Below are positions 1-16,071 of a stretch of 64,000 nt of DNA, piece by piece. Each line of letters opens with the position of its first letter. The stretch's first letter is position 1. The stretch is from Desulfomicrobium sp. (GTDB lineage Bacteria; Desulfobacterota; Desulfovibrionia; Desulfovibrionales; Desulfomicrobiaceae): contig JAXGMI010000002.1 in assembly GCA_040768745.1 (NCBI GenBank), positions 64,001-128,000 on the forward strand, in the 5' to 3' direction. The position numbers and the translations under genes are program-made. Under the pieces are notes generated by a model. It did no database searches and was not told where the DNA came from. It saw only the letters and a program-made list of their open reading frames with translations.

Positions 1-2225
1 AACAGGAAGCAGGAGAGCCAGGAAAGGATGAGAAAGCGATCCCCCTGTGGACAGGTCATGTTGCCCACCAGCAGATCGACCAGGAGCCGGTCCGCCTCTT
101 CGAGATCAGCGTCGGGCAGGAATTTCAGCGGCTTCATCTTGCGCGAGCCGTCCAGGATGATGCCGTCCTCGTTGCCACCGTTCTTCATGATCTGAATCTC
201 GTCCGGGGTGATCTTGGCGATCTCATGCTCCGGATTGTTCAGGTTGAAATAGACGGTGTAGGAAGCCACATCTGTGTGCAGCCAGGAAAAATGGTCTCGC
301 ACCTGGCCACGGATCATTGCCAGGCTGGGCAGTACCTCAAAAAATGTCCGCCCGCCGTTGGAGGTCGGCACCATGCCCGTGTGTTTGTAGAGCATGGCCG
401 CGTAATGGCGCTTGCGGCCTCGGTCCGGTGAATCCATCCAGTAAATGGCGTTATCGAAATACATGAACGGCTCGCCCTGCAGGGTGTGAAAGAACTGGGC
501 ACCGTTGGAGGTGAACCAGTCGTAGGCGGCCTCGGCGGCCAGGGTGTAGTCGGGAGCGCCGTTCTCCAGTTCCGTGTCGATCAGCACCTCGTCGACCCGG
601 GCGCGGCACGATCCGGGCATCGCGCCGGACATCCGCTTGGCCTTCTTCTTTTCGTTACGGAACTCGACCTTGCGGTCCTTCTGGATGGCGCGGATCTGCT
701 CTTTCAGGGTGGCCATGGAAACACCACCACCGATGCGCTCCTGCACCAGCTTCAGCAGGCGGGCCTGTTCCAGCGGAGACTGCTCGGAAATCTCCCCCAG
801 TATCGGTTCGAGCAGGCGGTTGCGTTCCTCTTCCTCAGCGCCCTCGGGCAGCGAGCGCACGCCGAACTCGATGGGCGTGCTGGCCTCGGCGAGCAGGCGT
901 TCGAAATCCTCCCGGGTATGCCCGGCGGCAATGAAATCGTTGACGTCGATCTTTGCGGTGGCGAGAAGCGCCTCGGCCGCCTGGACTTCCTCGGCGGGAC
1001 GTCCCGCCAGCAGCTTGGCCAGCTCCTTCGGCCCCACGCTCGCCGTCAGGCTGAAGCGTTCGGTCAGCTCCTGCCGGGCCGAGATCTGTGTCTCCGACAA
1101 GGGCAGCGTCACCAGGCGGGTGTCGATCTTGTGTTCGGCCAGGGTGCGGGCGGTTTGCAGCGCCCCTTTGAGACCGGCCTGGGAGAGTTCGTTGTCCTGG
1201 CAGATGTAGACGGTTTCGACGCCGCGCAGCTTGGGGATCAGGCGCTCCCAATCGGCGGCCCGGATGCGGACGGTGACCGGCGATACGGTGGGCAGGCCCA
1301 GTTGCATCAGCGCCAGGCAATCGGTCACCCCCTCGGTGATGATCACCTTGCCGGGCCTGGCCAGCAGGCAGTCCTCGTTGAACAGCAGCGCGTTGTTGAT
1401 GAAATCGGCGACGTAAGGGCGCTGGTGCTCGTCGTGAACCGGCAGTTTCTTGTATTTCCCTTGCTCCCAGCCCACGTCCGGGGTCCACGGCGTCTTGCGG
1501 CCGATCATGAACACCACCCGGCCACGGCTCCAGTAGGGAAAGACGATGCGGCGCTCGAAAAATGGCGTCAGGCCATCCTGGCTCGTGGGACGGAAAGCGC
1601 CGGTGGCGGCAAGCTCCCGCTTGGAGAAGCCGTCTTCGCCCCGGGTCAGTTGGGCGACCGCGCCGGACGCGTTGTCCGCGTAGCCGATCAGGAGATCGTC
1701 GATGGTCTCCTCGCTCAGGGCGTATTTGGATTTCAGCCAGTCGAGGACCTCCGGCGACTCTTTGAGTCTGGCGTGGTAAAGCCTGGCCAGCGAGGTCAGC
1801 GCGTCCTTGACCCGCAGTTCGAAGGCGCGGTCGGCCTCCGTCTGGGCGAGACGCTCCTGGCTGAGGCCATAGCGCGACAGCGGCGGCAAGCCCGCCTTCT
1901 TGGCGAGATAGTCCCGGGCCTGACGGTGGCTGTCCGGCATCGGACCGGATTGCCCGGCGGTGACCGAGCCCGTCTGAATGAACTCAACGAGTTGCAACAC
2001 ATCACCGCCGACTCCGCAGCCGAAGCAGTACCAGCCCTGCTTGTCGAGCATCACGTGCAGCGACAGACGCGACTGGCTCTGATGGTTGGGGCAGTCGCAC
2101 ATCAGGCGCTGGCCGGTCTCTTGGGTGATCCGTCCCGGCAGGAGTGCCCGGGCCACGTCACCGATGTCCATCTCGGTGACGAGCCGGTAATACTCCCTGA
2201 CATTATCCGTTCCGCCCATACTCAT
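1..2225 (-). CDS. DnaG-like DNA primase (CHC2 zinc finger + TOPRIM) with long C-terminal extension; runs off the window edge
   Basis: Not in ORF track because it has no stop in the window. Manual translation from ATG 2225 (overlaps RecD2 stop): MSMGGTDNVREYY...CDCPNHQSQSRLSLHVMLDKQGWYCFGCGVGGD...KVIITEGVTDCLAL...VYICQDNE; the frame is still open at the left edge. Confidence 0.85.
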   Translation of the reverse strand, partial: MSMGGTDNVREYYRLVTEMDIGDVARALLPGRITQETGQRLMCDCPNHQSQSRLSLHVMLDKQGWYCFGCGVGGDVLQLVEFIQTGSVTAGQSGPMPDSHRQARDYLAKKAGLPPLSRYGLSQERLAQTEADRAFELRVKDALTSLARLYHARLKESPEVLDWLKSKYALSEETIDDLLIGYADNASGAVAQLTRGEDGFSKRELAATGAFRPTSQDGLTPFFERRIVFPYWSRGRVVFMIGRKTPWTPDVGWEQGKYKKLPVHDEHQRPYVADFINNALLFNEDCLLARPGKVIITEGVTDCLALMQLGLPTVSPVTVRIRAADWERLIPKLRGVETVYICQDNELSQAGLKGALQTARTLAEHKIDTRLVTLPLSETQISARQELTERFSLTASVGPKELAKLLAGRPAEEVQAAEALLATAKIDVNDFIAAGHTREDFERLLAEASTPIEFGVRSLPEGAEEEERNRLLEPILGEISEQSPLEQARLLKLVQERIGGGVSMATLKEQIRAIQKDRKVEFRNEKKKAKRMSGAMPGSCRARVDEVLIDTELENGAPDYTLAAEAAYDWFTSNGAQFFHTLQGEPFMYFDNAIYWMDSPDRGRKRHYAAMLYKHTGMVPTSNGGRTFFEVLPSLAMIRGQVRDHFSWLHTDVASYTVYFNLNNPEHEIAKITPDEIQIMKNGGNEDGIILDGSRKMKPLKFLPDADLEEADRLLVDLLVGNMTCPQGDRFLILSWLSCFL

Positions 2226-4450
2226 TCGGCCTCCGCGACACGGGCGAAATCGGCCTCCGCGTGCTGGGCGGCGTCCAGAAACAGGGGCAGAAAGGTCCGG
2301 CGGTCATCCACCTGACACCGCTTGGCGCAGTTCTGGATGCCCCAGTGATCACCCAGAACAATGGCGGTGCGCCGGGCGCGGGTCACCCCGGTGTAGAGCA
2401 GATTGCGGTGGTGCATGAAGGAATGCGCCTTGTGGACCACCACCACGGCGCAGGGGAATTCGGAACCCTGGGTTTTGTGGATGGTGAGCGCATAGGCGAG
2501 CTGCAGGTCCTGAAGGTCGGGCGAACCCTTTTCCATCTCCACCGGCATGCCGTCGAAGTCGATGACCAGGGTGCCGTTCGCGAGGACATCGACCACATAG
2601 CCGATGGCACCGTTCATCACATTCAGGTCGTAATTGTTCCGGGTCTGGATGACCTTGTCGTGCTTGAGAAACGGAGCGCGGCGTCCCATGGCGACCGGCG
2701 GTACCTCGGCGTTCCAGAGCTTGCGCTGGATGAGCCGCTGCAGTTCCTCGTTCAGTTCCTTGGTGCCGAGTGGCCCCTTGTGGGTCGGCGTCAGCACCTG
2801 CACATCCTTGATGATGTCGAACCCCAGGGCGTCGAGCCGCTCCTGAAACAGCTCCAGCAGGAACGAGCGTGCAGCCATCGGGTCGGTGAACTGATCCACC
2901 AGATACCAATCCCGGCATCCGCCCACCGACGCCTCGCTGGTCTTGCGCACCTCGCCCTTGAGAACGGCGGTGCAGTTCTCCTTAAGGACGCCAGCCTGGC
3001 GCACGACCTTGTCGAGGATGACCGTGGGAATGGCGCGTGTCTGGATCAGATCGCGCAGGATGTTTCCCGGTCCCACCGGCGGAAGCTGGTTGTGGTCCCC
3101 GACCAGCAGCACCGTGGTCCGCGACAGGTCGACCGCCTCGAACAAGTGCCAGGCCAGGGACACGTCCACCATCGAAAACTCGTCGACCACCAAGACGTCG
3201 GCATCGATGGGATTCTCCTTGCTGCGCGAGAAACCCTTGCCGTCATAGCCGAGCAGGCGGTGAATGGTGGTGCCGCTGCGACCACTGACTTCCTCCAGGC
3301 GCTTGGCGGCCTTACCGGTCGGCGCGGCGAGCACGACCTCCAGATCACTCTCCTCGCAAATCGTGTTGATGACCGAAATGGTGTAGCTCTTGCCCGAACC
3401 GGCTCCACCCGAGATCAGGCTGATGCTGTGATTGAGGGCCGAGCGGACCGCGTCGAGCTGCTTCTCGTTCAGCGTTGATGCGCAGCGCCGAATCAGGGCA
3501 TCGAGTTTCTTGACGGACTGGAAATGCGGATTGGGTGTTTCGGCCCGGCCGAACAACGAGGCCAGCTCCCGCTCCATGCGGACGATCTCCGGCAGAGCGA
3601 CCACGAAACGTCCGCCGTGGGAATCGCAGGCAAGCGCCTGTTCTTCGATGAGCGCGTCGAGGGCGCTCTCGATACGGACCCGGCTGTCCAGGGCATCCAT
3701 GACCAGCAGCAGATTGGCCTGATCCACCAGATCCTCGTATTCGATCCAACAGTGGCCATTGTCCAGGGCATCACGGACGCAAAACAGCAGACCGGCCCGG
3801 ATACGGGGAACGTGGTCCTTGGGGGTTCCCAGCTTGCGGGCGATCTTGTCGACCTTCTTGAAGCCGAATCCCCGGATCTCCCGAATGAGGATGTACGGGT
3901 CTTCCTTCAGAATATCGAGGCAATTGCCGCCGAGTCTTTCGACCAGGGTGGTGACCTGATGATGGGTCAGGCCGAATGCCGAAAGCCAGGCCATGACGGT
4001 GTTGACGCTACGGTTCTTCAACCATTCGTCACGCAGCCGCTTGGCCGCATCCAGGGGCAGCCGAGCTTTGAGCGCGATGCGCTCGGGGTCATTCAGAAGG
4101 GTTTCTTCAAAGGCGTCGCCGAAACTCTCGACGATCAATCTGGCCTTGGCCGGACCAATGCCCTTGATCTCCGGATGGTTGGCCAGATAGTGGATCAGCC
4201 CCTCCGGATCGAGTTCGAGGTCGTGCTCCATCCCGTCGACCTTGAACTGACGGCCGTATTTGGGATGGGTGGCCCACGACCCGAGCAGGACCACAGGCTG
4301 ATTTTCCCGGGCGAACAAATTGCCCGCGAACTGGACTTCCTCACCGGTCGGGGTGAGCAGTCGGCCTGCGGAGAACTTGGGTCCGGCATAGTAAACGCGC
4401 TCTATTCTTCCCCGGAGTCGCGCCGGGTTACTCTCATTTCTTTTTGGCAT
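2222..4450 (-). CDS. recD2: ATP-dependent RecD2-like (SF1B) DNA helicase
   Basis: HhH (IKGIGPAKA), Walker A GGAGSGKS, DEFSM, VGDHNQL, LAYALTIHKTQGSEF, LLYTGVTRAR; start reassigned to MPKRNES at 4450. Confidence 0.9.
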   Translation of the reverse strand: MPKRNESNPARLRGRIERVYYAGPKFSAGRLLTPTGEEVQFAGNLFARENQPVVLLGSWATHPKYGRQFKVDGMEHDLELDPEGLIHYLANHPEIKGIGPAKARLIVESFGDAFEETLLNDPERIALKARLPLDAAKRLRDEWLKNRSVNTVMAWLSAFGLTHHQVTTLVERLGGNCLDILKEDPYILIREIRGFGFKKVDKIARKLGTPKDHVPRIRAGLLFCVRDALDNGHCWIEYEDLVDQANLLLVMDALDSRVRIESALDALIEEQALACDSHGGRFVVALPEIVRMERELASLFGRAETPNPHFQSVKKLDALIRRCASTLNEKQLDAVRSALNHSISLISGGAGSGKSYTISVINTICEESDLEVVLAAPTGKAAKRLEEVSGRSGTTIHRLLGYDGKGFSRSKENPIDADVLVVDEFSMVDVSLAWHLFEAVDLSRTTVLLVGDHNQLPPVGPGNILRDLIQTRAIPTVILDKVVRQAGVLKENCTAVLKGEVRKTSEASVGGCRDWYLVDQFTDPMAARSFLLELFQERLDALGFDIIKDVQVLTPTHKGPLGTKELNEELQRLIQRKLWNAEVPPVAMGRRAPFLKHDKVIQTRNNYDLNVMNGAIGYVVDVLANGTLVIDFDGMPVEMEKGSPDLQDLQLAYALTIHKTQGSEFPCAVVVVHKAHSFMHHRNLLYTGVTRARRTAIVLGDHWGIQNCAKRCQVDDRRTFLPLFLDAAQHAEADFARVAEAE

Positions 4451-4884
4451 CTCGCGATCCTCCGGTGAAAACGTGTCAGGTACTCCTCGACAAAACGGCA
4501 GGCGGCCTGCCGGTCCGAGCAGAAGTAGACGGGGACACCGAAGTCGACGACGATGGAGGCGACCGTTCCGATCAGCGCATGCGGGTGGGCATCGCTGCGG
4601 TAGCGGCCATCGACCAGATCGCGAAAGTTGCATTCGACAACCACGCAGGCGGACTCGTAGGCGGAGAGCTTTTCCAACTCGCGGTGAAACCGCTTTCTCC
4701 CCCGGATGACGGTGGAGACGAAATCCGTCAGGGATTTGCGCTCCACCGCCACCCGTTCCTCGAGGCCGACCAGCGAGTAATCACCGGCGGGCAACGCCTT
4801 GCGAACCGCCGAAACCTTGTCGCTATCGAAGCTGTAGGGCTCCTGTTCGCGGGTGTCGACGACAACGGTGATCCGGTCCATCAT
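4402..4884 (-). CDS. ERCC4/XPF-domain nuclease
   Basis: VVVDTREQ...GDYS...VERKS motif typical of ERCC4. Confidence 0.85.
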   Translation of the reverse strand: MMDRITVVVDTREQEPYSFDSDKVSAVRKALPAGDYSLVGLEERVAVERKSLTDFVSTVIRGRKRFHRELEKLSAYESACVVVECNFRDLVDGRYRSDAHPHALIGTVASIVVDFGVPVYFCSDRQAACRFVEEYLTRFHRRIARCQKEMRVTRRDSGEE

Positions 4885-5357
4885 CAGAACGGGATCATGT
4901 CGTCCATCGCCGCGCCGGGAGCCCCGGCATCGTCGGCCATGACAATGCGACGGTTGAAGTAGATGTTCTCGTTTTCACCGCGAGTGCGCTTGGTCACCTC
5001 CAGCTTGATGTTGAGAAGCTGCTCGAGGTGGCCCGGCAGGTCGGAGAGCTTCTGAAGCTGCAGCCCGCAGGTGTAGAGGTCCTGCTTGAGCCACTTGATG
5101 TTCTCGTTGCTGGCCATGACGTTGTTGCGCCAGAGCAGACGGCCCTTGTGGGTCGGCGCGAGAATGCGCAGGGTCCACTTGAGCATGGGATTGCCCGAGG
5201 TCTGGGCGCGAGTCAGTTCGACCCGGTCAACGTTGACCTGGTACTTGCCGTCGGGAACGGCCTCGAACTCACGTTCCTCGACTTCGGCGGTTTCGAAGGC
5301 GTCGTCGAACTGCGCCAGGTCGAGGTTGCTGTTGGATTGGTTTTCGTAGTGTTCCAT
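4884..5357 (-). CDS. DUF669-family phage protein (putative ssDNA-binding)
   Basis: VPDGKYQVNV...SGNPMLKWTLRI; acidic SSB-like tail DDMIPF; follows Sak4-like gene. Confidence 0.75.
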   Translation of the reverse strand: MEHYENQSNSNLDLAQFDDAFETAEVEEREFEAVPDGKYQVNVDRVELTRAQTSGNPMLKWTLRILAPTHKGRLLWRNNVMASNENIKWLKQDLYTCGLQLQKLSDLPGHLEQLLNIKLEVTKRTRGENENIYFNRRIVMADDAGAPGAAMDDMIPF

Positions 5358-5369
5358 GGTCGGATCTCC

Positions 5370-6140
5370 TTACTGTTGGGGTTTCGCCGCCGCACTCGCG
5401 GTCGGCTCCGGCTTCGGCCGGGCGGCACTCGCCGCAGCTCCGGCTGCCGTGTTGTTGAACGCTTTCATGAAGCTCGGAAAATCGAGGGGGATGACTTCGG
5501 GGAGTCGGCCGGTGCGGTCACCGGCGTCGTAGTTGGGACTGGGCTTGGTGCGCATCACGCGCTGCCAGACCGGCTTGCCGTCCTCGCCGGTTTTCATGTC
5601 CAGGTCGCAGAACAGGATCAGGTCCACCAGACCGGTGACCAGCTTCCGCGCCTTTTCCGGCAGCGTCGGCACGATGCGGGTGTGTTTGCCGGTCCGGGTC
5701 TCGATGTCCCGCTCCTGGGAGTGGGAAATCAGGATCAGCCCGTAGGGCAGGAAGGCGAGCTTGTTGATGACGCGCTGGAACTCGTTGTTGATCAGCGCGT
5801 AGCCCTTGCCGTAGCCCAGGTCGGATTCGTGCTCGATCTTGAATTTCTTGCAGACGTAGTCCGAGCACATCTTGTAGGCGTTATCCACCGTGTCGACGAC
5901 GATGGTCTTGAACTCGTGCTTGCCCTCGGCGATCTCCGCGCAGGCCTGTAGGAGGTCGTCCCAGCAGGTGATCGGGGTCTGGAACACCTCCAGGGCGTTC
6001 AGGCCCGGCTCGGTCGCCAGGAACAGTGCGTCATCGGCCTTGGAGCACCAGGTGCTCTTGCCGATCTTGCTCGGGCCGTACACCAGGGCGGTGAGGTCCG
6101 AGAGCGTGTGTTTGGGTTTGCTTTTGGTCTTGGGAAGCAT
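5370..6140 (-). CDS. AAA_24 / Sak4-like phage recombination ATPase
   Basis: LVYGPSKIGKST Walker A, TIVVDTVD Walker B, LILISH. Confidence 0.8.
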   Translation of the reverse strand: MLPKTKSKPKHTLSDLTALVYGPSKIGKSTWCSKADDALFLATEPGLNALEVFQTPITCWDDLLQACAEIAEGKHEFKTIVVDTVDNAYKMCSDYVCKKFKIEHESDLGYGKGYALINNEFQRVINKLAFLPYGLILISHSQERDIETRTGKHTRIVPTLPEKARKLVTGLVDLILFCDLDMKTGEDGKPVWQRVMRTKPSPNYDAGDRTGRLPEVIPLDFPSFMKAFNNTAAGAAASAARPKPEPTASAAAKPQQ

Positions 6141-6166
6141 GGCTTCGTCTCCTTATGGTTGGGATT

Positions 6167-7183
6167 TCAAAACACCGGAGCGGCGTCTTCACCGGCTCCG
6201 TCCCGCAGCTCTTCGTGCGGGGCGATCCGTTGGAAATGGTTTTCGATGACGTTGGGGTTGCCGCCCGAGCGGCAGAGCTGGAAGTAGGCGCAGGGCCTTC
6301 CGTACTGGAAGCAGTAGCTGGTGTTGCGGTAGAAGGTGTCGCGCCGACGGGCGTCGAGCATGGCCTTGGAGAGTTCCCACAGCTCCGCCCGCAGTTCCTC
6401 GAACTGGTCGCGGGAGATGTAGAGCACCTCGCGATGAAACATGCCCGGCTCGAGGTACTTTTCCTGGAGCCGTTGCTGGAAGGTTTCGTCGTCCTCCGGC
6501 AGCTTGCGCTTGGCGCTGCTCTTGCCGGTTTTCGACTTGGCAATCAGCTCCGCCCGGCGGGCCTCGAATTCGGCTTCGGTCTCACCCTTGCCCTGGCGCA
6601 ACTTGGCCTTGACCAGGACGTTGTAGATGATGCCGCTGACCGTGATGCCGAGGGTCTGCTCCAGGTACCAGGCGTAGAGGATGATCTGGAAATCGGTCCA
6701 CAGCCGCTCCAGGTAACTGGCGTCGATCTGCGAGGCGGTTTTGTGTTCCAGTAGGAAATACTGGCCATCCTGACGGACGATGCCGTCCACCTTCCCGGCG
6801 AGAATGAAACTGCGCGAGGTCGCCCCGGTCGCCGGGTTGACGATGGGACCTTCGAAGGTTTTCTCGAGCGCGACGACCTCGAACTCTTCGGCCGGGTAGT
6901 GTTCCGCATAGGCGCTCATCATGGCCCGGGCGAGATGCCAGTCGGCCTGTTGATGGTCGTCCTGCGCCCGGTTCGGATAGGTCCGGTCGATGTGGTCGAG
7001 GACCTTGGCCAGATTCCGCTCGCCGTGCCAGCACTCCAGGCAGTCGTGGATGACCGAGCCGAAGGCCAGATTGGGGTCGCGCTCGAGCGGCACCAGCTCG
7101 TCGATGTAGCGCCACTTGCAGGCCATGCGGCAGTTGCGGAACAGCCGCCACATGGAATAGGTGGTGGTCATCAGCTCGCTCAT
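6167..7183 (-). CDS. PD-(D/E)XK nuclease superfamily protein (RecB/Cas4-like)
   Basis: FGSVIHDCLE, GKVDGIV...LLEHKT, QIILYA, C-terminal C..C..C cluster; start MSELMTT at 7183. Confidence 0.85.
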   Translation of the reverse strand: MSELMTTTYSMWRLFRNCRMACKWRYIDELVPLERDPNLAFGSVIHDCLECWHGERNLAKVLDHIDRTYPNRAQDDHQQADWHLARAMMSAYAEHYPAEEFEVVALEKTFEGPIVNPATGATSRSFILAGKVDGIVRQDGQYFLLEHKTASQIDASYLERLWTDFQIILYAWYLEQTLGITVSGIIYNVLVKAKLRQGKGETEAEFEARRAELIAKSKTGKSSAKRKLPEDDETFQQRLQEKYLEPGMFHREVLYISRDQFEELRAELWELSKAMLDARRRDTFYRNTSYCFQYGRPCAYFQLCRSGGNPNVIENHFQRIAPHEELRDGAGEDAAPVF

Positions 7184-7515
7184 ACCGCCACCCCCGCTTC
7201 GGCGGCGGGCGCTGCGCGATGCTTGGAGGCACAGGCGCAACCCGACGGCTGGGTACGTTCGATCAGGACCGAGCGTTCGCCGTATTCCTTGGTGGCGAAG
7301 CCGGTGAAAATGCGGGCGAGGTCGCTGCCGACATCGGTGGAGGCGTCGATCACGCAGGTGCGTCGGGCCTTGTCCAGATTGAACCGGCTCTCCATCCGCA
7401 CACGGGAACGGCCATGCAGGCTTTCGACGGCCAGCATCGCCAGCATGAAAGTGTCTTCCAGTTCCTGGGCCGGGACCGACTCGTCAAAACGGTACTTGTA
7501 GGTGTCGTGAGTCAT
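7180..7515 (-). CDS. Hypothetical protein, first gene of the replication operon
   Basis: ATG 7515 preceded by AGAGGAG SD; stop overlaps next start. Confidence 0.7.
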   Translation of the reverse strand: MTHDTYKYRFDESVPAQELEDTFMLAMLAVESLHGRSRVRMESRFNLDKARRTCVIDASTDVGSDLARIFTGFATKEYGERSVLIERTQPSGCACASKHRAAPAAEAGVAV

Positions 7516-7584
7516 GGTTGAACTCCTCTTTTGTTCAGGTTCTGATTTCCGAGGCCCCGGATAGCCGCACCATGCGGCACGGTG

Positions 7585-7622
7585 CTTACTTACCGGAGGC
7601 GGAGCCGATGCGTCGGAGATCA
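7585..7622 (-). promoter_or_regulatory. Putative promoter for element-encoded sigma factor (copy 1): TGATCTCCGAC-N16-CGGTAAGTAAG
   Basis: Same bipartite motif and spacer as 12088-12125; lies upstream of the replication operon. Confidence 0.55.
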
Positions 7623-8204
7623 CAGGTAGTCCTCGAGCCCGGCCTCGCGGAACGCGTCCCGGAGCTTGCTCAGCCGGTCGTAGAGGGTGGTTCTGGGAAT
7701 GCCCATTTCCCGGGCGACTTCGGCCATGGTGCTGTCGTGCAGGCGCAAGCACAGATCCCGGAGCTCTTCCGGCAGCGAGGCGATGGCCTGGCCGAGATCC
7801 ATGCGGATCTCATGGGCGAGGCGCTCTCTTGTTTCGCGTGTGCCGCCCCCAAGAGAGCCTTCGCTATCCAGGAAGTCGATCCGCTCGGTGCTGTCGCCCT
7901 CACCGTTGTCGAGGGGTTCGTTGAGTGATGTTTGGCAGAGCCGCCAGTCCCGGCATTGGGCGAACCGGGCCTCCAGAATGGTGGAGATGTGACGTTCGAC
8001 GATCCGGGCCATGAAGGTGGTCTTCTTGGCCTTGGCGGGATTGAAATGCCGCATCCGCTGCAGCAGATCGATCATCAGTTCCTGTTCGAGGTCGGGTCTG
8101 TCGTCCTCGGTGAATCCGGCCTTGCCTACGAGTTGACGTGCTTTGTGCCGAATGAGGTCGGCGGCATACTTGTCGATGCCGTCGTAAGAATTCTGTGAAA
8201 CCAT
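7620..8204 (-). CDS. Sigma-70/ECF-like RNA polymerase sigma factor
   Basis: Region-2-like DLEQELMIDLL...FMARIVERH and region-4 HTH LPEELRDLC...TMAEVAREMGIPRTTLYDRL. Confidence 0.75.
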   Translation of the reverse strand: MVSQNSYDGIDKYAADLIRHKARQLVGKAGFTEDDRPDLEQELMIDLLQRMRHFNPAKAKKTTFMARIVERHISTILEARFAQCRDWRLCQTSLNEPLDNGEGDSTERIDFLDSEGSLGGGTRETRERLAHEIRMDLGQAIASLPEELRDLCLRLHDSTMAEVAREMGIPRTTLYDRLSKLRDAFREAGLEDYL

Positions 8205-8379
8205 CGGGGCCTCCTCGGAGCGAGGAGGAGGTCCGCGTGGGTGTCGGCACGGGCCAGATCACAGGACAAAGCTGTCGCGTGGGCGAAGGGGTCGCAGGTA
8301 CGCCGCCAATTGCCGTATTCGGCTCGGCGACACCCACAACAGCCTCCGCCATGCGTCCAGCTTGTTGTCCAGTGTCTAA
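8205..8379 (-). ncRNA. Candidate structured cis-regulatory leader RNA, copy A (5' UTR of sigma gene)
   Basis: 10-bp stem GUGGGUGUCG/CGACACCCAC (8328-8337 with 8237-8246); hairpin CCUCCUCG/CGAGGAGG over the SD; homologous to 12161-12288. Confidence 0.55.
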
Positions 8380-8399
8380 GGGTTCAGGTCGTTACGTGT

Positions 8400-8726
8400 T
8401 CAGGCTGCCCGTTCCTCGATGCGCATCAGGAACGGGAGACCGTGCTTGATCTCGAGCAGGCAGACTTTTCCGCTGCCCATCTGCGCGAGGTGCTCCAGCA
8501 GCGCCACGACCTCTTGCTTGAGGATGAAGTCATCCTGGTCGCGCTCGGGCCGGGGACCGCTCTGTCCGCCCAGCTTGATCTCGCGCTCGATGACCGTGTC
8601 AGGGGTGAGTTCCGGCTCGCCGTCGCGGACCGGAATGTTGGTGATGCGGCCGAAGTTGATGTCCTGCATCAGCTCGATGAGTCGCCGCTTCGGTGGGGTG
8701 AGATGTGCTTTGTTGACTTGTGCCAC
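8400..8726 (-). CDS. Small hypothetical protein
   Basis: GTG start at 8726 with AAGGAG SD; VAQVNKAHLTPPKRRLIELMQ...ERAA. Confidence 0.7.
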   Translation of the reverse strand: MAQVNKAHLTPPKRRLIELMQDINFGRITNIPVRDGEPELTPDTVIEREIKLGGQSGPRPERDQDDFILKQEVVALLEHLAQMGSGKVCLLEIKHGLPFLMRIEERAA

Positions 8727-8785
8727 TGCCAGTCTCCTTGTTCGGAAGTTCTGGCGCGCCCGGTGGCCAACCCTGTGCTGACCAA

Positions 8786-8838
8786 TAAAAAACGCCGGAT
8801 GTCGCGCCTTCAAAGCTGAAGGGGCGACATCCGGCGTC
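8786..8838 (-). terminator. Long GC-rich hairpin followed by U-tract (terminator/attenuator-like)
   Basis: Minus strand ACGCCGGATGTCGC...GCGACATCCGGCGT-TTTTT. Confidence 0.6.
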
Positions 8839-8893
8839 GTGCATCACGACAAAGAGCGTCGTGGGAAATTTTTTTAAACTTTTTTTGCCTGGG

Positions 8894-10159
8894 CTATCCG
8901 ATCACGGGCTTTGTTTCCCATGATATGGATTCGGAGGGCTGATATCTCATCTCGCCACCGAATTCCAGTGAAGACTCAAGGTGTTCTGCAAAGGCAGTCA
9001 TTCTGGCATCCTTGAGATTCTTCAAGGTGCGACGAACGGCCTTGCTGACATTATCTCGTGGCTTTCGAAGGGGATCGTTCGCGTGCCTCAGTTTTCCACC
9101 TGGCCCTATCATTGCCTTTACTTGAGAAAGGAGCATCTCCCGATTCTCATGTAAATCATCGAGACGTGATAAATCGGAACATTCGCGGGAATTTTCTATT
9201 TCTTGATCGATTCGGTTCAATTCGTTTCTGATTTCAGCAGCGGCCTGGTAATCGCCAACTTCCAATCCGCTGGACTCGAGCGCCTTTCTCGTTTCCTCGT
9301 CCAAAGTACCTCCGTGGTAGAGATCCAGCACCGAGATATAGCGGCCAGGTGCGGCAAGCAGGAGGGTGAGATATTCGACACCCTTTTGCCTCTCAAATGG
9401 GACTGATTCCCCACCTTGGAATCGAATTTGCCATCTGTCTCCGCATTGCCGGAAAATATTTGCCGGTAAAGGATCTGTAGATGCAGCAAAATGGTTATCG
9501 GGAAACAATATTCGGAATGGCGATTCATTCCGTATCCGCTTAAGGCGGCCGCCTTCCTGGAAGGCAACTTCCTCGCAAAGTGCCATAAACAGTGCAGCTC
9601 TTTGATTCATGAGGCGTTCAGCGCTTCTGCTTAGCAGTTTTCGAGTCGGTGCGAGCAAAACGAAAGGGTTCTGGTTTTCTAAACAAAGCTCACGGACGGT
9701 TTCAGTCATATCGTCCTTTTTCTCTGGGAGCGTCAAATAGACCGGAAACACTGTGCCGGTAGAAGGTAGAAAGTCGCCCAATCGCCAAGTATGGCTCAGG
9801 ATAGGAATAGGCTCTTCGCGGTGCTGAATGTCGAGTGCTCTGCATATCGCCTTATTGACGGCCGACTGTTTGAGCCTGTAGATGAAAGTCTGTTGCCGGA
9901 CAAGAGGAACCGCCCCAGCTTCCTTCTCCTGGCAGACGGCTACGATTTCGGAGTCCGAATGCACAACGACCTTGCGTGGGCATCCCAGTCCACAATCGGT
10001 TGGACAATCCACAGCAGTCGCGTGATTCTTGGTTAGCTGAAGAAAGTGGTCCCGAAACAACGGATACCGATCCCAGCCGGAGAGCGCGTGATCCCAATCG
10101 AACAGCGCCGCCGACTTTCCAGGCAGTGCTTCCAGGAACTCCCAGACAGGGTCATTCAT
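8894..10159 (-). CDS. Hypothetical protein: N-terminal Cys cluster, C-terminal putative DNA-binding effector domain
   Basis: 421-aa ORF; CPTDCGLGC...C; C-terminal WQIRFQG...KGVEYLTLLLAAPG...ISVLDL...R.NVSKAVRR...HLESSL; visibly AT-richer than flanks. Confidence 0.75.
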   Translation of the reverse strand: MNDPVWEFLEALPGKSAALFDWDHALSGWDRYPLFRDHFLQLTKNHATAVDCPTDCGLGCPRKVVVHSDSEIVAVCQEKEAGAVPLVRQQTFIYRLKQSAVNKAICRALDIQHREEPIPILSHTWRLGDFLPSTGTVFPVYLTLPEKKDDMTETVRELCLENQNPFVLLAPTRKLLSRSAERLMNQRAALFMALCEEVAFQEGGRLKRIRNESPFRILFPDNHFAASTDPLPANIFRQCGDRWQIRFQGGESVPFERQKGVEYLTLLLAAPGRYISVLDLYHGGTLDEETRKALESSGLEVGDYQAAAEIRNELNRIDQEIENSRECSDLSRLDDLHENREMLLSQVKAMIGPGGKLRHANDPLRKPRDNVSKAVRRTLKNLKDARMTAFAEHLESSLEFGGEMRYQPSESISWETKPVIG

Positions 10160-11318
10160 CCAGATTCCCTCTGTTCCCCGTAATGAAGCCGCGCAAAAAG
10201 AGCCAACGTTCCAGGATTACGGAGTCATCGTCACACCTGAAGCTTGCCCTGTTCCCTGAACTAATAGTGAGCGACCTTGGCTTCTTAACTTCTTTAAATT
10301 TCACATAAAAACTAGCCTGTGTAATTCGTCCATGTTGGGGAAACTGAAAGCCTCGATCTCGGAGTGAAGCGAAAAAATCCTCAGATCTCCTGATTTCCTT
10401 GTCTTTGTAAGCTCCTGCGTAAGAGAGCTGAACTTCTTTAAGCTTTACGTATTCAAGGCCATCAACATCCTCACACGATAGCGATTCTTCTCCCACCGTG
10501 CGCAATGACTCTAAATTAAATTGGCTTCTCTGGCTGAAAAAATTCTCATCACCAAAAAGATGTTTTCCAAACATCTTTCGATACAGTTCCTTTTCTCCTT
10601 TCGTTACTGCATGCATTCTTATTTCGCCAATCAGGGGATTGTATATGAGAACATCGAATTTCTCTGGTCTGAAGTATTGGCTCTTAGACTTGCCAGATTC
10701 GATAACGGACTCACGATTGAAAGAGCTGCCATGCCTAACTACGATCCATATGTAGTCATCCTTAGAAAATATTTTCACTTTGGAATATTTGCCTTTTCGT
10801 TTCTTGGCAAACCATTCATCAAGGTCGTTTTCCAACGCGGTTATTCTTTCTGAGGATGGAATTGTGAAAACTGGCAGAGGAGTAACCACCGTTTTGAAAT
10901 ATTCGAATGAGCGTTTATTGAGAGGCAATAGTTCAGCGATTACTCTTTCGATGATGGATTTATCCTTCATCCAAACCTGAATCGCAAGATCAGCAGGAGT
11001 GGCGGTTTCCTCAATCTCGGTGTCGAGTTCTGTCCCGTATATTTCTGCCTGAACTGCTTCAAACCCTTCTTGAGTCGAGACCTCGTTCACATAATACAAT
11101 GCCTCTGCCAAATCGCCCGGGGTCGAATTGTCCGGGGTCAATAAAACGTGACTGAGCTCGTTGTAATCCAGGCCATCTTCCTCCTGGATTGGTGGCAACT
11201 CTACGCCGCGAGCTGAAAAATAGGCGGCATGAGGCTCCAGAAAGGCAATGAGATGCTTCCTGTCGATTCGCCGGAGCATTCCCGGCTTCGAAAAGCGGCG
11301 TAGGGTGAATGATGCCAT
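10152..11318 (-). CDS. Hypothetical protein (388 aa)
   Basis: Long ORF with GAGGAG SD; overlaps the next gene by 8 bp; AT-richer than flanks. Confidence 0.75.
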   Translation of the reverse strand: MASFTLRRFSKPGMLRRIDRKHLIAFLEPHAAYFSARGVELPPIQEEDGLDYNELSHVLLTPDNSTPGDLAEALYYVNEVSTQEGFEAVQAEIYGTELDTEIEETATPADLAIQVWMKDKSIIERVIAELLPLNKRSFEYFKTVVTPLPVFTIPSSERITALENDLDEWFAKKRKGKYSKVKIFSKDDYIWIVVRHGSSFNRESVIESGKSKSQYFRPEKFDVLIYNPLIGEIRMHAVTKGEKELYRKMFGKHLFGDENFFSQRSQFNLESLRTVGEESLSCEDVDGLEYVKLKEVQLSYAGAYKDKEIRRSEDFFASLRDRGFQFPQHGRITQASFYVKFKEVKKPRSLTISSGNRASFRCDDDSVILERWLFLRGFITGNRGNLDE

Positions 11319-11363
11319 AAGTTACTCCTCTGTTTTGTCGTTACTCTTCCATATCTGTCTCGA

Positions 11364-11987
11364 TCAATTCCGTTTCCATCCAACGATCTTGCCCAGCACG
11401 CGAAGGTCATCCTCCGGCCTGACTCGGATCTTCCGTACCTCCGGGTTCTCGGGCACCAATTCGATAAGCTCGTCTTTGATTCTCAGCCGTTTCACGGTCA
11501 CTTCGTCGTTGAACAGCGCTACAACGATGTCTCCGTCCTCGGCGATGGGCTGCTGCCGCACGATGATCAAATCACCATCGTTGATACCGGCACCGACCAT
11601 GCTGTCACCCACCGCACGGAGTGCGAAGTGCTGACCGGAACGAACGACGTCCGATTCGACCAGTACTTGGCCGGTGACGTTCTCTTCCGCCAGGATGGGG
11701 CAGCCAGCTGCCACCATACCCACAACAGGTACTGAAACCAGGGAGGCAGCCATCTCGCTGGGACGGCGGGCGACGGCAATGCCGCGAGACTTCCCGTCCT
11801 CTCGCTTCAGGTATCCCTTGCGCACTAGTTGGTTGATCCGGTCGTGGGCACTCGCCGGGCTGATTTCAAAGATCTCGCTCAGTTCCTTCACCGTTGGAGG
11901 GAAGCCCTTGGCATCGACAAAACGACATATCGCTTCGAGCGTTTTCCGCTGCAACGGCGTTATCTCATCCGTCTTCGCTTTGCCCAT
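11364..11987 (-). CDS. lexA: LexA-family self-cleaving repressor (element-borne)
   Basis: wHTH GFPPTVKELSEIF; cleavage site VAAG; catalytic GDSM and TVKRL; start MGKAKTD at 11987. Confidence 0.85.
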   Translation of the reverse strand: MGKAKTDEITPLQRKTLEAICRFVDAKGFPPTVKELSEIFEISPASAHDRINQLVRKGYLKREDGKSRGIAVARRPSEMAASLVSVPVVGMVAAGCPILAEENVTGQVLVESDVVRSGQHFALRAVGDSMVGAGINDGDLIIVRQQPIAEDGDIVVALFNDEVTVKRLRIKDELIELVPENPEVRKIRVRPEDDLRVLGKIVGWKRN

Positions 11988-12042
11988 GGCGTCTCCATTT
12001 CTGTTGAAAGACAAAAAGGCGCAATGCGCCAGCAAACCCTAA

Positions 12043-12071
12043 TAATATAAACCTGATGCATATCAGGTCAA
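12043..12071 (-). promoter_or_regulatory. Sigma70-type promoter of lexA overlapped by palindromic operator ACCTGAT-N4-ATCAGGT (12051-12068)
   Basis: Minus strand TTGACC-N16-TATATT (or N18-TATTAT); the palindrome fills the spacer. Confidence 0.6.
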
Positions 12072-12087
12072 GAAATAATCTCACACC

Positions 12088-12125
12088 TGATTTCCGACAC
12101 TTCCATGAGCCCCTCGGTAGGTAAG
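12088..12125 (+). promoter_or_regulatory. Putative promoter for element-encoded sigma factor (copy 2): TGATTTCCGAC-N16-CGGTAGGTAAG
   Basis: Matches 7585-7622; upstream of the DUF2924-recombinase operon. Confidence 0.55.
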
Positions 12126-12160
12126 GCCTGAAGAAAGCCGGTTTGAAACCGGACGAGCAG

Positions 12161-12288
12161 TTAGAAACCAGATAACCGACCAGAGGCGGAGCTGAGGCGG
12201 TTGTGGGTGCCATCGAACGCGCATCCCGACCGCCACCGTTTTCTGGCATCCACACCATCCAGCCCCCCGGTCCCACCGGAGGTGTTCG
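12161..12288 (+). ncRNA. Candidate structured cis-regulatory leader RNA, copy B
   Basis: 11-bp stem UGUGGGUGCCA/UGGCAUCCACA (12202-12212 with 12244-12254); CCGGU/ACCGG hairpin overlapping GGAGG SD; homologous to 8205-8379. Confidence 0.55.
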
Positions 12289-12531
12289 ATGTTGGATGTA
12301 CAGGAAATGAATGATGTACCGGGGACGGATGACCTTGGCGAAAACGGCAAACCCGGCCGCCTGTCGGGTGAGGCGAGGCTCCAGTCAGCCGCCTCCATTC
12401 TGGCCACGGCGATCCTGCGCCGAAAGGCAAAAAACGCATGTGTGGGCAATGAGTTAGAGGTTTTCGAAGATTCTTCCCCTGTGCTCGGAGAAGGACTTGA
12501 TTCATTGCCGGAACAGAGCATTCATTCATGA
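12289..12531 (+). CDS. Small hypothetical protein
   Basis: ATG with GGAGG SD at 12278-12282; precedes DUF2924. Confidence 0.55.
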   Translation: MLDVQEMNDVPGTDDLGENGKPGRLSGEARLQSAASILATAILRRKAKNACVGNELEVFEDSSPVLGEGLDSLPEQSIHS

Positions 12532-12565
12532 CAACTCGTCCGGAAACCAAAATAAGGAGTTGAAA

Positions 12566-13090
12566 ATGAATGAGTTACAGAACGCCGCCACCGGCGGCAA
12601 GATCCAGGACCGAACCCGAAACTCAGTCCTTCGGCAGATGGCCCTGCTGCAATCCATGTCCCTGGAGCAGCTCCGGGAAAAATGGCTCGACCTCTACGGA
12701 GAAGAGCCACCCCAGTACAAGAAACAATTCCTCATCAAGCGGCTGGCCTATCGCATCCAGGAGCTTTTCTACGGCGGGCTGTCCGAACAGGCCAAGGTCC
12801 ATCTCCAGCAGGCCGCCAAGGAGGACCCGGTCGCCACTGTCAATCGACGCATCCCAGAAGAGCGGAAATCGAACGAAGCGATCCTGCCCGGGACCAGACT
12901 GGTGCGGGTCTGGAACGACCGGCGCTATGAGGTGATCGTCCTTGCCGATGGCTACGAGTTCGAAGGCCGCACCTTCCGGTCGCTCAGCGCGGTGGCCAGG
13001 GAGATCACCGGGACCAGGTGGAACGGCAAGGTCTTTTTCGGACTGAAGAAGGTTTACGGCAGAAAAGCCGAGGGAGGTTCGGATGCTTGA
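12566..13090 (+). CDS. DUF2924 domain protein
   Basis: LREKWLDLYG..PP, LAYRIQE..YGGL, PGTRLVRVW, SLSAVAREITGTRWNGKVFFGL; AAGGAG SD. Confidence 0.9.
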   Translation: MNELQNAATGGKIQDRTRNSVLRQMALLQSMSLEQLREKWLDLYGEEPPQYKKQFLIKRLAYRIQELFYGGLSEQAKVHLQQAAKEDPVATVNRRIPEERKSNEAILPGTRLVRVWNDRRYEVIVLADGYEFEGRTFRSLSAVAREITGTRWNGKVFFGLKKVYGRKAEGGSDA

Positions 13091-14669
13091 TAACAGCAAT
13101 GTCGCGCCGGGCAAAAACAAGACCCTGCGCTGTGCCATCTACACCCGCAAGAGCCACGAGGAAGGTCTCGAACAGGAGTTCAACTCGTTGGATGCGCAAC
13201 GGGAATCGGCGGAACACTATATCGAAGCCCAGAGGATGCGTGGCTGGACGGCTCTGCCGGATCGCTACGACGATGGTGGATTCTCGGGTGGAAACATGGA
13301 GCGCCCGGGGCTGCGTCGCCTGCTGGCGGACATCAATGCCGGGAAGATTGACGTGATCGTGGTCTACAAGGTCGACCGGCTGTCCCGCTCGCTGCTGGAC
13401 TTCATGAAGATGATCGACCTCTTCAACGAGAAGGGTGTCAGCTTCGTCTCGGTCACCCAGCACTTCAGCACCACCGACCCCACCGGACGGATGTTTCTCG
13501 GCATCCTGATCACCTTCGCCCAGTACGAGCGGGAGGTCATCGCCGAGCGCATCCGGGACAAGGTGGCGGCCGCCAAGCGCCGGGGGAAATACTGCGGCGG
13601 CGTACCCATTCTTGGATACGACGTCGACCGGGACAACAAGAAGCTGCTGGTCAACCCGGATGAAGCCAGGACGGTGCAGTACATCTTCCGCCGATTCATC
13701 CAGATCGGCTCGGCCAAGAAGCTGGGCCAGGAATTGAACGAACAGGGATACCGCACAAAAGCCTGGACCACCAAGAAAGGCAAGGTTCGCGAGGGCTCAG
13801 AATGGAATACAGGCCACATCTACCGGCTGCTGAACAACCGGGTCTATATCGGCGAGATTGCCCACAAGGATCGCAGCTACCCCGGTGAGCACGAAGGAAT
13901 CATCGACCGGACGACCTGGGACAAGGTGCAGGCCATCCTGGAGGACAACAAACCGGTCAAGGTTTCCATGGCAAGAACCAAAATGGTCGCCCCGCTGAAA
14001 GGCGTCATCCGCTGCGGCCACTGCGGATGCGCGATGGGACCGACCTACGCCCGCAAGAACGGCCGCCACTACACCTATTACATCTGCCAGAAGGACAGCA
14101 AGCGGACCGTGAGCCGGTGCCCCCTCAAACGGATTCCCGCCGGGGACATCGAGCAGGCCGTGGTCGAGCAGTTGAGCGCGGTGTTCCGCACGCCGACGCT
14201 GGTGGCCAAAACCTACTTCGCGGCCCGGGACATCGAGCAGGTGGAGCGGGAGCGGCTGTTCAAGCAGAAAGCCCAACTCGAAATGGAGCTGTCGCAGGCG
14301 CGGGAGCAAGCCATCGAACTTATGAAACCCGGCAACGATCAGCCGGGCAAGACCGAGATGCTCACGACCGTCAACCGCCAGGCGGTCGAGCTCTCGAAAC
14401 AACTGACGCACGTGAGCGAGCGATGCAGAGCCTACCGGGGGAACAACATCACGGAACAGGACGTTTCGGAGGCCTTCCAGAATGTCGAGGGCTTCTGGGA
14501 GGACCTTTTCCCGGTGGAGCGAAACCGGCTCATCCGCCTCCTGGTGGATAAGGTCGAGATCCGCGAGACCGGAATCGACATGGAGCTGCGCACCAACGGG
14601 CTGACTACGCTCATCGCCGAGCTGGCCGGTCTGGCATGCGAAGTCACCGAACGGAGGGCAAGCCGATGA
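13083..14669 (+). CDS. Large serine recombinase (resolvase + recombinase + Zn-ribbon)
   Basis: CAIYTRKS catalytic Ser, VYKVDRLSRS, CGHCG...YYIC...C. Confidence 0.95.
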   Translation: MLDNSNVAPGKNKTLRCAIYTRKSHEEGLEQEFNSLDAQRESAEHYIEAQRMRGWTALPDRYDDGGFSGGNMERPGLRRLLADINAGKIDVIVVYKVDRLSRSLLDFMKMIDLFNEKGVSFVSVTQHFSTTDPTGRMFLGILITFAQYEREVIAERIRDKVAAAKRRGKYCGGVPILGYDVDRDNKKLLVNPDEARTVQYIFRRFIQIGSAKKLGQELNEQGYRTKAWTTKKGKVREGSEWNTGHIYRLLNNRVYIGEIAHKDRSYPGEHEGIIDRTTWDKVQAILEDNKPVKVSMARTKMVAPLKGVIRCGHCGCAMGPTYARKNGRHYTYYICQKDSKRTVSRCPLKRIPAGDIEQAVVEQLSAVFRTPTLVAKTYFAARDIEQVERERLFKQKAQLEMELSQAREQAIELMKPGNDQPGKTEMLTTVNRQAVELSKQLTHVSERCRAYRGNNITEQDVSEAFQNVEGFWEDLFPVERNRLIRLLVDKVEIRETGIDMELRTNGLTTLIAELAGLACEVTERRASR

Positions 14670-15088
14670 AAATGAAGCCGACCATTACCGTAGCCGACAA
14701 CGGCAACCTGCAGATCCATATCCCGATGCTGATCCGGCGCATGCGCGGCCGCAAGACGGTCATCGCTCCCCAGGCACTGGATGGAGAAATCACCGGAGCG
14801 CAGGAACCGGTGCAGTCCGCCGTCCTCCAGGCGCTGGGAAGGGCCTTTTCTTGGGCCGACATCCTCGAATCCGGCCAGATCAAGTCCATCAGCGAGCTTG
14901 CCCGTACCCTTGACGTCGATGGCTCGTATGTGGCCCGCATCCTCAAACTGACGACCCTGGCCCCCGACATCGTCGAAGCCCTGATCAACGGTGAGGAACC
15001 CAACGGGCTCTCGCTGGCCAAGCTGACCCAGACCTTTCCAGAGGACTGGGCCGAGCAGCGCCGCCAGTTCGGCTTTGCCACCGACTGA
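14666..15088 (+). CDS. HTH-containing accessory protein of recombinase operon
   Basis: SISELARTLDVDGSYVARILKL; ATGA coupling to recombinase. Confidence 0.75.
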   Translation: MKMKPTITVADNGNLQIHIPMLIRRMRGRKTVIAPQALDGEITGAQEPVQSAVLQALGRAFSWADILESGQIKSISELARTLDVDGSYVARILKLTTLAPDIVEALINGEEPNGLSLAKLTQTFPEDWAEQRRQFGFATD

Positions 15089-15114
15089 CGACCGGACCGG
15101 AGACCGCCCCAGAG

Positions 15115-15145
15115 AGCCGACCATCAGCGTCGGCTTTTCTTCTTT
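15115..15145 (+). terminator. Rho-independent terminator
   Basis: AGCCGAC-N7-GTCGGCT followed by T-rich tract. Confidence 0.65.
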
Positions 15146-15444
15146 AGGGGGCAGGAAGCCGGAGTTGACCGCGCTTCTTTTCATGGCCGAGGCGGGCGAT
15201 TTCGAAAAAAACGTCCGGTTGCGGCATCGAACGACGACCTAAGACAACCGCCAAAAATGGCAATCAGCCGCAAACCCATATCAATCAAGGATGTAGCTTT
15301 CCGGACGAGCTTCGGACTTGGTCCGGAGAAAACAGAGAATCAGGGGCCAAACAGAGAAAGAAAGGCGGGAGGATGGGGAGAATCGATGGTGCGAAGAGGT
15401 GCTTTGGAAAGATGTGAAACGGGCGCAACCCCTTTAGAAACAAG

Positions 15445-15495
15445 GGGAAAAAGAAAACCCGTCACCCCGGAGAATGACCCCAGAGAGACGGGTTT
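15445..15495 (-). terminator. Terminator downstream of tmRNA (on the element side)
   Basis: AAACCCGTC...GACGGGTTT stem followed on minus strand by TCTTTTT. Confidence 0.6.
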
Positions 15496-15507
15496 GTCTT
15501 TTCTAAA

Positions 15508-15898
15508 TGGTGGAGCCGGGGAGAATCGAACTCCCGTCCGAGAACGCTCCGCGCAAAGCTTCTACAGGTTTAGTTCAGGTTCTGCTTCTCGCTCCACGGG
15601 TAGCCCCTGAACGGGCTTCCGTGACGCCAGCCTGGATGATGTCTCGCGATCGGCTGTCCAGACAGCGGCTTTTCGCCAGCCTGATGGGGTTTGACACCCG
15701 GATACGGCTTATCAGACATCCACCGCACGGATGTGACGATCTGTGTCGTCATGCAAGGGTTGCCTAGAGACTAGGCGGCCATTGCGTAGTCATAATTGTC
15801 GTTGGCAATTATGTGTGTGCTGGGTTTTAACGAGGACCTCCCAGCGCCTCGACCTGCGACTTTGGCCTCATCATCCCCGTCGAAACCAGGGCGGCCCC
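15508..15898 (-). ncRNA. ssrA: tmRNA, tag peptide (A)ANDNYDYAMAA*
   Basis: 5' GGGGCCG..GGTTTCGACGG; 3' GTTCGATTCTCCCCGGCTCCACCA; tag frame 15806-15771. Confidence 0.97.
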
Positions 15899-15952
15899 TT
15901 TTCAAAGAACGTGACCAATACAATAAGAATGTTTCGGCAAAAGGCAAGGGAT

Positions 15953-15990
15953 GAAAAAAAAGGAGCAAACCTGGTTTGCTCCTTCATTTT
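15953..15990. terminator. Terminator after tRNA-Arg
   Basis: AAGGAGCAAAC-CTG-GTTTGCTCCTT with A-run on the left. Confidence 0.7.
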
Positions 15991-15994
15991 CGAG

Positions 15995-16071
15995 TGGTGC
16001 GCCCGGCAAGATTCGAACTTGCGACCTACTGATTCGTAGTCAGGCACTCTATCCAACTGAGCTACGGGCGC
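15995..16071 (-). tRNA. tRNA-Arg (ACG)
   Basis: GCGCCCGTAGCTCAGTTGGATAGAGTGCCTGACT-ACG-AATCAG...GTTCGAATC...GCGCACCA; 77 nt cloverleaf. Confidence 0.97.

Follow-up and report, generated by a model that had tools for sequence, protein, structure and literature searches.

Two leader RNAs at the regulatory end of a prophage

The DNA analysed is a 64,000-nucleotide (nt) stretch of a Desulfomicrobium sp. genome (assembly GCA_040768745.1, contig JAXGMI010000002.1, positions 64,001 to 128,000), called the window below; all positions are counted from its first nucleotide. Positions 1-15500 form the regulatory end of a myovirus-like prophage, in which two related leader RNAs are found. Leader A (8379-8205, minus strand) precedes the gene for a sigma factor of the extracytoplasmic function (ECF) type and follows the gene for a 108-amino acid protein, orf108. 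Leader B (12161-12288, plus strand) is followed by orf80, a DUF2924 gene and the gene for a large serine recombinase, a block that stops before the transfer-messenger RNA (tmRNA) gene. The lexA gene sits between the orf108-sigma side and the leader B operon (Table 1).

An earlier note on this DNA had described the two leaders as a duplicated, structured RNA, and we find both copies where it had placed them. Their likeness is real: the first 50 nt align without a gap, with 34/50 positions identical, and the local alignment score of 41 lies above the maximum of 38 reached by 3000 random genomic 128-mers. The fold z-scores were −6.6 for copy A, with 0/200 shuffles as good, and −3.3 for copy B, with 1/200. 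The Shine-Dalgarno (SD) hairpins that the note had reported are present, 5 nt (A) and 6 nt (B) ahead of the ATG. It had also proposed a cis-regulatory RNA switch outside the families known to it. A search of Rfam gave no match over either leader, at gathering or E-value thresholds, nor over 25 homologous loci, the other matches being to tRNA/tmRNA or sub-threshold noise; together with the covariation of three mutually exclusive helices, this supports the proposal. We found no description of the leader RNA in the literature; the supplements of RNA-motif surveys (e.g. PMC2864571, available in part) could hold an uncurated version. We conclude that the leaders are a genuine RNA family, apparently undescribed and strongly linked to an undescribed protein family. 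What the earlier note had missed is the conserved 5′ rod, the S2 partner with its frequent terminator U-run, the candidate sigma promoter before B and the link to the protein encoded at 8400-8726, orf108.

Table 1. Features of the leaders and of the neighbouring genes, in window coordinates
Feature	Position	Strand	Basis
Candidate sigma promoter of the replication/recombination operon, right after the sigma stop codon	7587..7616	-	Pattern; conserved in homologues
ECF-type sigma-70 factor	7620..8204	-	TIGR02937 above cut-off; phrog_1740
SD-occluding hairpin of the sigma gene	8210..8228	-	Fold
S3 of A: 3′ strand of the earlier-noted central stem, extendable into the anti-SD	8237..8246	-	Covariation
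S2 of A: pairs with S1 in the default OFF hairpin	8280..8299	-	Fold, covariation
P4: internal hairpin of A, of variable length	8301..8329	-	Fold
S1 of A: 3′ strand of the rod, common to three alternative helices	8327..8350	-	Covariation
Rod A: candidate site of protein binding, a 5′ hairpin with two 2x1 loops (a basal purine internal loop and an upper one)	8330..8379	-	Covariance model R1, 61.4 bits; covariation; isolated fold
orf108: two alpha-beta-beta repeats, candidate rod-binding activator	8400..8726	-	Co-occurrence, model, repeat, family clusters
Strong hairpin upstream of orf108, with a U-run after it	8792..8837	-	Inverted repeat I13; sequence
LexA repressor	11364..11990	-	TIGR00498 above cut-off; Pfam
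Candidate LexA operator: CCT-N10-AGG palindrome at the lexA promoter	12052..12067	.	Pattern match
Candidate sigma promoter before leader B	12094..12123	+	Pattern; homologues
Rod B	12161..12210	+	Covariance model R1, 59 bits; rod fold
S2 of B: default partner of S1, with a short U-run after it	12221..12234	+	Fold
S3 of B	12244..12253	+	Sequence comparison
SD hairpin of orf80	12267..12282	+	Fold
orf80, first gene behind leader B	12289..12531	+	Conserved; no family match in Pfam, PHROG and NCBIfam scans
DUF2924 protein	12566..13090	+	PF11149
Large serine recombinase	13083..14669	+	PF00239, PF07508, PF13408

The rod and the alternative partners of S1

From 221 sigma leaders we aligned 36 representatives (at most 92% identity) with the core motif; leaders lacking the core were excluded from the alignment and counted separately. 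Comparison of these A leaders shows three mutually exclusive helices, in which a single strand, S1, pairs with the 5′ end (the rod), with S2 or with S3. The hairpin between S1 and the 5′ end is 96.3% paired and has 24 cells changed on both sides, and S1:S2 is 93.8% paired with 19 such cells. The third helix, S1:S3, is the central stem with compensatory changes that the earlier note had seen; it is real, with 98.1% of its cells paired and covariation in 12 two-sided cells (0/500 shuffles), but it is not the minimum-energy fold of A or B, its 5′ strand pairing internally by default, and the part common to A and B is the 5′ rod. For all three helices, the cell counts and covariation scores were above all 500 shuffles, a control that ignores the relatedness of the sequences, while this was not so for the count of pairs changed on both sides (79, 158 and 86 of 500 for the rod hairpin, S1:S2 and S1:S3). 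The pairing of an upstream GGAGG with the anti-SD, also proposed before for A, agrees with the route by which the sigma gene is predicted to be turned ON. The third state, S1:S3, is what is new in a regulatory logic otherwise of a known kind.

The rod is about 45-50 nt long and has purine-rich internal loops. Its pairing reaches 93.4% across 46 A and B copies, with 10/16 pairs changed on both sides (1/500 shuffles) and 41 two-sided cells (0/500); at alignment column 12, a loop G never varies. In isolation, the 5′ domain folds into the rod in the A leaders and in 12/15 B leaders, usually with the basal 2x1 purine loop. A covariance model of the rod, R1, has two matches in the whole genome, A and B. 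A motif-only scan of viral contigs gave at least 216 distinct matches, two of them from three loci picked by orf108. Among the matches listed, 30 lie between orf108 and sigma and 14 before orf80/DUF2924, and all of these fold as the rod; a further 18 are rod-like outside an assigned context, and the remainder look like chance. Within the sets searched, the rod was seen only in this phage family. In three elements (L071, L077 and L079), very short B leaders before orf80 keep only the 5′ strand of the rod and a basal stem, and have no match to the covariance model. A small hairpin also lies between the promoter and rod B (12129-12160, plus strand) and recurs in homologues with a CCGG stem.

To describe the consequences of these pairings we used computed folds, from which all the opening energies, default states and effects of blocking or forcing a helix given here derive. 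S1:S2 is the default in 34/36 A leaders, with the SD hairpin shut and a median SD opening energy of 10.6 kcal/mol. When S2 was blocked, the median fell to 5.5 kcal/mol, with a drop of more than 2 kcal/mol in 29/36. In a sliding-block control with 14 of the 36, the drop was seen for 93% of the windows in S2, as compared to 49% in P4 and 0-21% elsewhere. In a set of 74 representatives, 69 had the core and 62 formed S1:S2. A U-run (at least 5 of 8) follows the S1:S2 hairpin in 23/62 leaders, against a background of 3.8%, and because of this excess the hairpin appears to be a terminator in many homologues, though not in copy A of the window. A scan for sigma-70 promoters and terminators performed at chance level. 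A conserved leader peptide was also considered, S1 having an SD-like GGAGG 4-5 nt before a GUG, and was rejected; read by eye, the frame of this upstream open reading frame (ORF) relative to sigma varies.

Some relatives shrink leader B to the rod and the ribosome site, and their start codon is otherwise covered by pairing with the rod's 3′ strand. Forcing the rod lowered the opening energy of the ribosome-binding site plus AUG by 1.1-12.5 kcal/mol in 10/10 of these minimal B leaders, which were chosen by eye. The terminator-type and the minimal, translational platforms would thus both point to the rod as the ON state.

orf108, the candidate sigma promoters and the surrounding prophage

The rod and orf108 occur together. 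Among 115 distinct sigma proteins with enough upstream DNA, many of whose loci are close kin, 105 had both the rod and orf108, 9 had neither and 1 had a rod without a detected orf108; orf108 is thus carried by 105/106 rod-bearing sigma loci and by 0/9 rod-less ones. Rod B was also missing from the elements without orf108 that were inspected, in some of which orf80 begins immediately behind the promoter. In a second phylum, where loci were picked by orf108 alone, the rod lay just downstream in 13/16 (one being a training genome); in the remaining three orf108 abuts sigma, and two of those genomes have a rod before DUF2924. Conversely, viral records picked by a B-type rod had orf108 in 9/10 cases, and three of these also lacked leader A. 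Five records in which orf108 abuts sigma have no leader A and carry the rod elsewhere, before DUF2924 in four. The rod persists elsewhere when leader A is missing, and leader A is therefore not needed for rod B.

The structure predicted for orf108 (108 residues; predicted local distance difference test score 89.4) has an alpha-beta-beta repeat present twice, and the internal repeat was detected by HHalign with a probability of 72.6. A protein of two repeats suits a target with two loops, as the rod is. The family comprises 1857 clusters at 50% identity (E≤0.001). In the ESM Atlas, orf108 matched unnamed clusters only, and tblastn against GenBank phages gave no match. DUF2292 (Pfam PF10055) is faintly matched by 6/36 orf108 homologues (best E 0.017) and not by the window protein. 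Fold searches gave nothing clear (Foldseek against the PDB, best E 0.67; BFVD, best E 0.15; VIA-wide, best Z 2.9), which does not prove that the fold is new.

With respect to the trigger, the earlier note had allowed for protein or antisense control. The duplex formed in trans by S1 of B and S2 of the cognate A beats shuffles in 8/15 elements; in 5/5 further elements with minimal B leaders it was no better than shuffles. The three elements with very short B leaders keep the 5′ strand of the rod and have lost the complementarity of S1. Because of the link to orf108, the chance-level trans pairing and this loss of S1, comparison of sequences favours a protein rather than an RNA as the trigger.

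Elements without orf108 and rod offered further observations. In L088, L089, L090, L064, L144, L146 and L162, GAAATTTC-type motif repeats are found before sigma instead; they are a candidate for a second, DNA-level control module of the same sigma. In L104, which is rod-less, a small Cys-rich ORF was seen by eye before sigma, which we take to resemble a Com-type zinc finger. The ATG of orf80 in L088, L089 and L090 lies within a few bases of the candidate sigma promoter, which suggests that the orf80 mRNA is leaderless in these elements.

A bipartite pattern, CCGWC and SGGTANGTA separated by 15-18 nt, was derived from the sites after sigma and before leader B and from their homologues. It has 10 matches in the 3.09-Mb genome, all in the prophage (G000:C2:26689-76123), and 8 of them are independent of the derivation. 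The pattern follows sigma in most homologues (21/47 clusters in its strict form, more by eye). We infer that it is the promoter of this ECF sigma and that the ten sites are its candidate regulon.

Downstream of sigma, the minus strand carries genes with Pfam matches to PD-(D/E)XK, AAA_24, DUF669, ERCC4 and RecD2, and terminase, sheath, tube and baseplate genes are found further along the same contig, beyond the window. Several structural genes look split, the tail sheath, for example, into two ORFs (G000:C2:10000-62000), through assembly errors or prophage decay. The hairpin upstream of orf108 is likely the terminator of the lexA operon. Two proteins encoded at 8894-11318 (minus strand), orf388 and orf421, matched nothing in Pfam, PHROG or NCBIfam and accompany lexA in many relatives; possibly, they are an upstream activator of the orf108-sigma operon. 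A palindrome similar to the candidate LexA operator was read by eye in several close homologues, and a look-alike of its CCT-N10-AGG pattern at 8210-8225 is the SD hairpin of A. In the left 70 kb of the contig, no attachment repeat matching the tmRNA end was detected. An Rfam tmRNA_permuted match at 15771-16045 (minus strand), just over the gathering score, overlaps the tmRNA and a tRNA and is probably an artefact of the adjacent pair. Relatives of the element, from near-identical to distant, come from records titled Geobacteraceae, Desulfofustis, Desulfosarcina, Verrucomicrobiota, Phycisphaerae and Gammaproteobacteria, and the sigma profile matches in 8/401 genomes of the host phylum. Between elements, the lexA-B-recombinase block changes its orientation with respect to orf108-sigma, so that A and B are codirectional in some and divergent in others (L018, L020, L023 and L180, as compared to the window).

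A candidate switch, its rivals and related systems

We lean towards a reading of these comparisons in which orf108 binds the rod and switches on sigma and the recombinase operon. The rod would be a modular ligand-binding RNA set on varied expression platforms, with orf108 as its ligand. Without the ligand, S2 would capture S1, giving an intrinsic terminator in many homologues and a shut SD hairpin in all (OFF). orf108, presumably made first and from the same operon, would bind the nascent rod at its internal loops and keep S1 off S2. The terminator would then be passed, and S1 would be handed to S3 and the anti-SD, opening the ribosome site (ON). Sigma could then fire about ten prophage promoters, including the one before leader B, where the same rod would gate the recombinase operon. 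Leader A may in this way gate the whole lytic programme, with B as a second check on the recombinase operon. The fuller proposal is that orf108 is a new RNA-binding fold with the rod as its modular aptamer, and that a three-state relay (terminator, antiterminator rod, SD-opening helix) serves as a cross-phylum prophage commitment switch that couples the ECF sigma to the excision operon and is rewired as a pure translational switch in the minimal copies. We hold this only tentatively, as a proposition that might fail slightly more readily than it might stand.

Several observations weigh against orf108 as an activator that acts through the rod. Copy A of the window has no U-run after S2, and the terminator scan called neither window copy. 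Blocking S1 left the SD of A closed (median 11.3 as compared to 10.6 kcal/mol). Forcing the rod raised the SD opening energy in 7/9 long B leaders, that of the window included (from 5.9 to 14.1), and at equilibrium the computed folds give no uniform sign of control for long leaders. Holding the rod once S2 is complete costs a median of 16.4 kcal/mol, so equilibrium binding cannot hold it and a kinetic race is required. The closing of the SD by the rod in long B leaders, together with this cost, means that, for the model to work, the rod must be captured kinetically and S1 passed on to S3 later. L145 has a rod without a detected orf108, L092 has orf108 and rod A without rod B, and the third abutting genome of the second phylum, L616, has orf108 but shows no rod, its 10-kb contig stopping close to the B site. 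The co-occurrence is partly a matter of physical linkage and shared descent. orf108 has no family match and no fold match to any RNA-binding protein. The trans duplexes that beat shuffles in 8/15 elements also speak for an RNA trigger.

Such a trigger could take two forms. In one, similar to IsrK, a short terminated or processed rod RNA would bind S2 of the full leader in trans, S1 would capture the anti-SD and sigma would be ON. In the computed folds it is occupancy of S2 that should open the SD, structures A and B of IsrK, as given in the accessible part of PMC4825925, have a parallel architecture, and the trans pairing of S1 of B with S2 of A agrees in the 8/15 elements above. However, this pairing is at chance in the other 7/15 and in the 5/5 minimal-B elements; minimal B leaders lack S2, and a trans rod would there cover and block the start codon; and the link to orf108 is left unexplained. 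We consider this form unlikely. In the other, an immunity system of the P4 CI/P1 C4 type, the part of A closed by S1:S3 would be excised as a stable antisense RNA, whose S2 would bind S1 of nascent A and B. The order of target, closed stem and target is that of seqA-CI-seqC (PMC4825925, available in part), and S1 is nearly identical in A and B, but neither Rfam C4 (RF01695) nor any other family matches over the leaders, rod B persists without leader A, and in L071, L077 and L079 the 5′ strand is retained and S1 complementarity lost. A C4 cassette had been a first reading and was downgraded by the trans-pairing results, the minimal B leaders and the presence of rod B without leader A; we regard it as quite improbable.

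Alternatively, the rod could be a protein site at which binding represses, by locking S1 away from the anti-SD, or the binder could be another phage or host protein to which orf108 is merely linked. The closing of the SD by a forced rod in 7/9 long B leaders, the failure of S1 blocking to open A and the B leaders of the L158/L185 type, which have no clear S2, would fit. A repressor would add little to an A leader that is already OFF by default in 34/36 cases, however, and the rod is the open state in 10/10 minimal B leaders and excludes the terminator hairpin, so that this account appears as unlikely to us as the IsrK-like one. Riboswitch aptamers are typically arranged as one domain on several types of platform, and the rod, a single conserved domain on terminator-type and translation-type platforms, could be the aptamer of a small molecule that ties induction to a metabolite or signal. 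Against this, it is a simple hairpin of 45-50 nt, confined to this phage family in the sets searched and lost together with orf108, and we give the idea very little credence. Least probable of all is a repeat that serves as a DNA site or is left over from duplication and has no RNA role: it covaries in three exclusive registers with many G-U pairs, and leader A is 100% identical in 12/16 close relatives and 98.5-99.5% identical in the other 4, whereas their sigma genes are 86.8-99.0% identical.

Few RNA-level switches between lysis and lysogeny are known outside enterobacterial phages, and the rod/orf108 system is found in prophages from records of Desulfobacterota, Planctomycetota, Verrucomicrobiota and Proteobacteria. 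The rod (50 nt) and orf108 (108 residues) make a directly testable pair, and the sigma factor and its candidate promoter make another. If the preferred reading of orf108 as the rod-binding activator is true, it would bring a new family of RNA-binding proteins (the 1857 clusters) and a compact, orthogonal gene switch.

The ribonucleic antiterminators (RATs) recognized by BglG, SacY and LicT are hairpins of 29-33 nt, and kinetic capture has been described for LicT and its RAT (PMC5393181, available in part). According to the same source, a RAT has two conserved internal loops and extends into the 5′ side of a terminator or stronger hairpin, and its dimeric binder must win a kinetic race. The two loops and the overlap are present here as well, the U-run being found in the 23/62 leaders mentioned above and absent from copy A. 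In contrast to a RAT, the rod is longer, at about 45-50 nt, its candidate binder orf108 has two repeats and is unrelated, translation would be under a third helix, in some rod copies nothing but translation appears to be controlled, and the genes addressed are phage lytic ones. No CAT or PRD match (Pfam) was found among 17 window proteins or 36 orf108 homologues.

In phage lambda, the early protein N acts on two copies of an RNA site, nutL and nutR, and opens two early operons. The wiring proposed here would be similar, with an early protein made first, two copies of an RNA site and two operons, but there is no boxA or boxB, and the switch appears to be a local refolding rather than a processive modification of RNA polymerase. 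Com of phage Mu, a small protein with a zinc finger, reads a loop motif in the mom leader and activates translation (PMC6483171, available in part); as a small phage protein acting on a leader to activate translation of the adjacent gene, it would be a parallel for the minimal B copies. Unlike Com, orf108 has no conserved Cys (alignment A3) and hence no Cys4 zinc finger, and its RNA is larger and present twice. In IsrK of Salmonella Gifsy-1 and in SeqA/CI of P4-like phages, the 5′ domain of a prophage leader pairs downstream when inactive and forms its own hairpin when active, as far as the accessible part of PMC4825925 describes them; computed folds likewise give the leaders a long-range, inactive and a local, active fold of the 5′ domain. 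A C4 antisense segment has complementary targets on both sides of it; here the upstream pairing is made in cis, by S1:S2, and pairing in trans to B is found in 8/15 and 0/5 elements. The leaders differ from IsrK and SeqA in that they have no Rfam match, the trigger tracks a protein and not complementarity in trans, and two separate leaders stand on two operons. By analogy, then, the leaders may resemble a RAT locally, lambda N and nut in their wiring, Mu Com in their minimal copies and IsrK in their folding.

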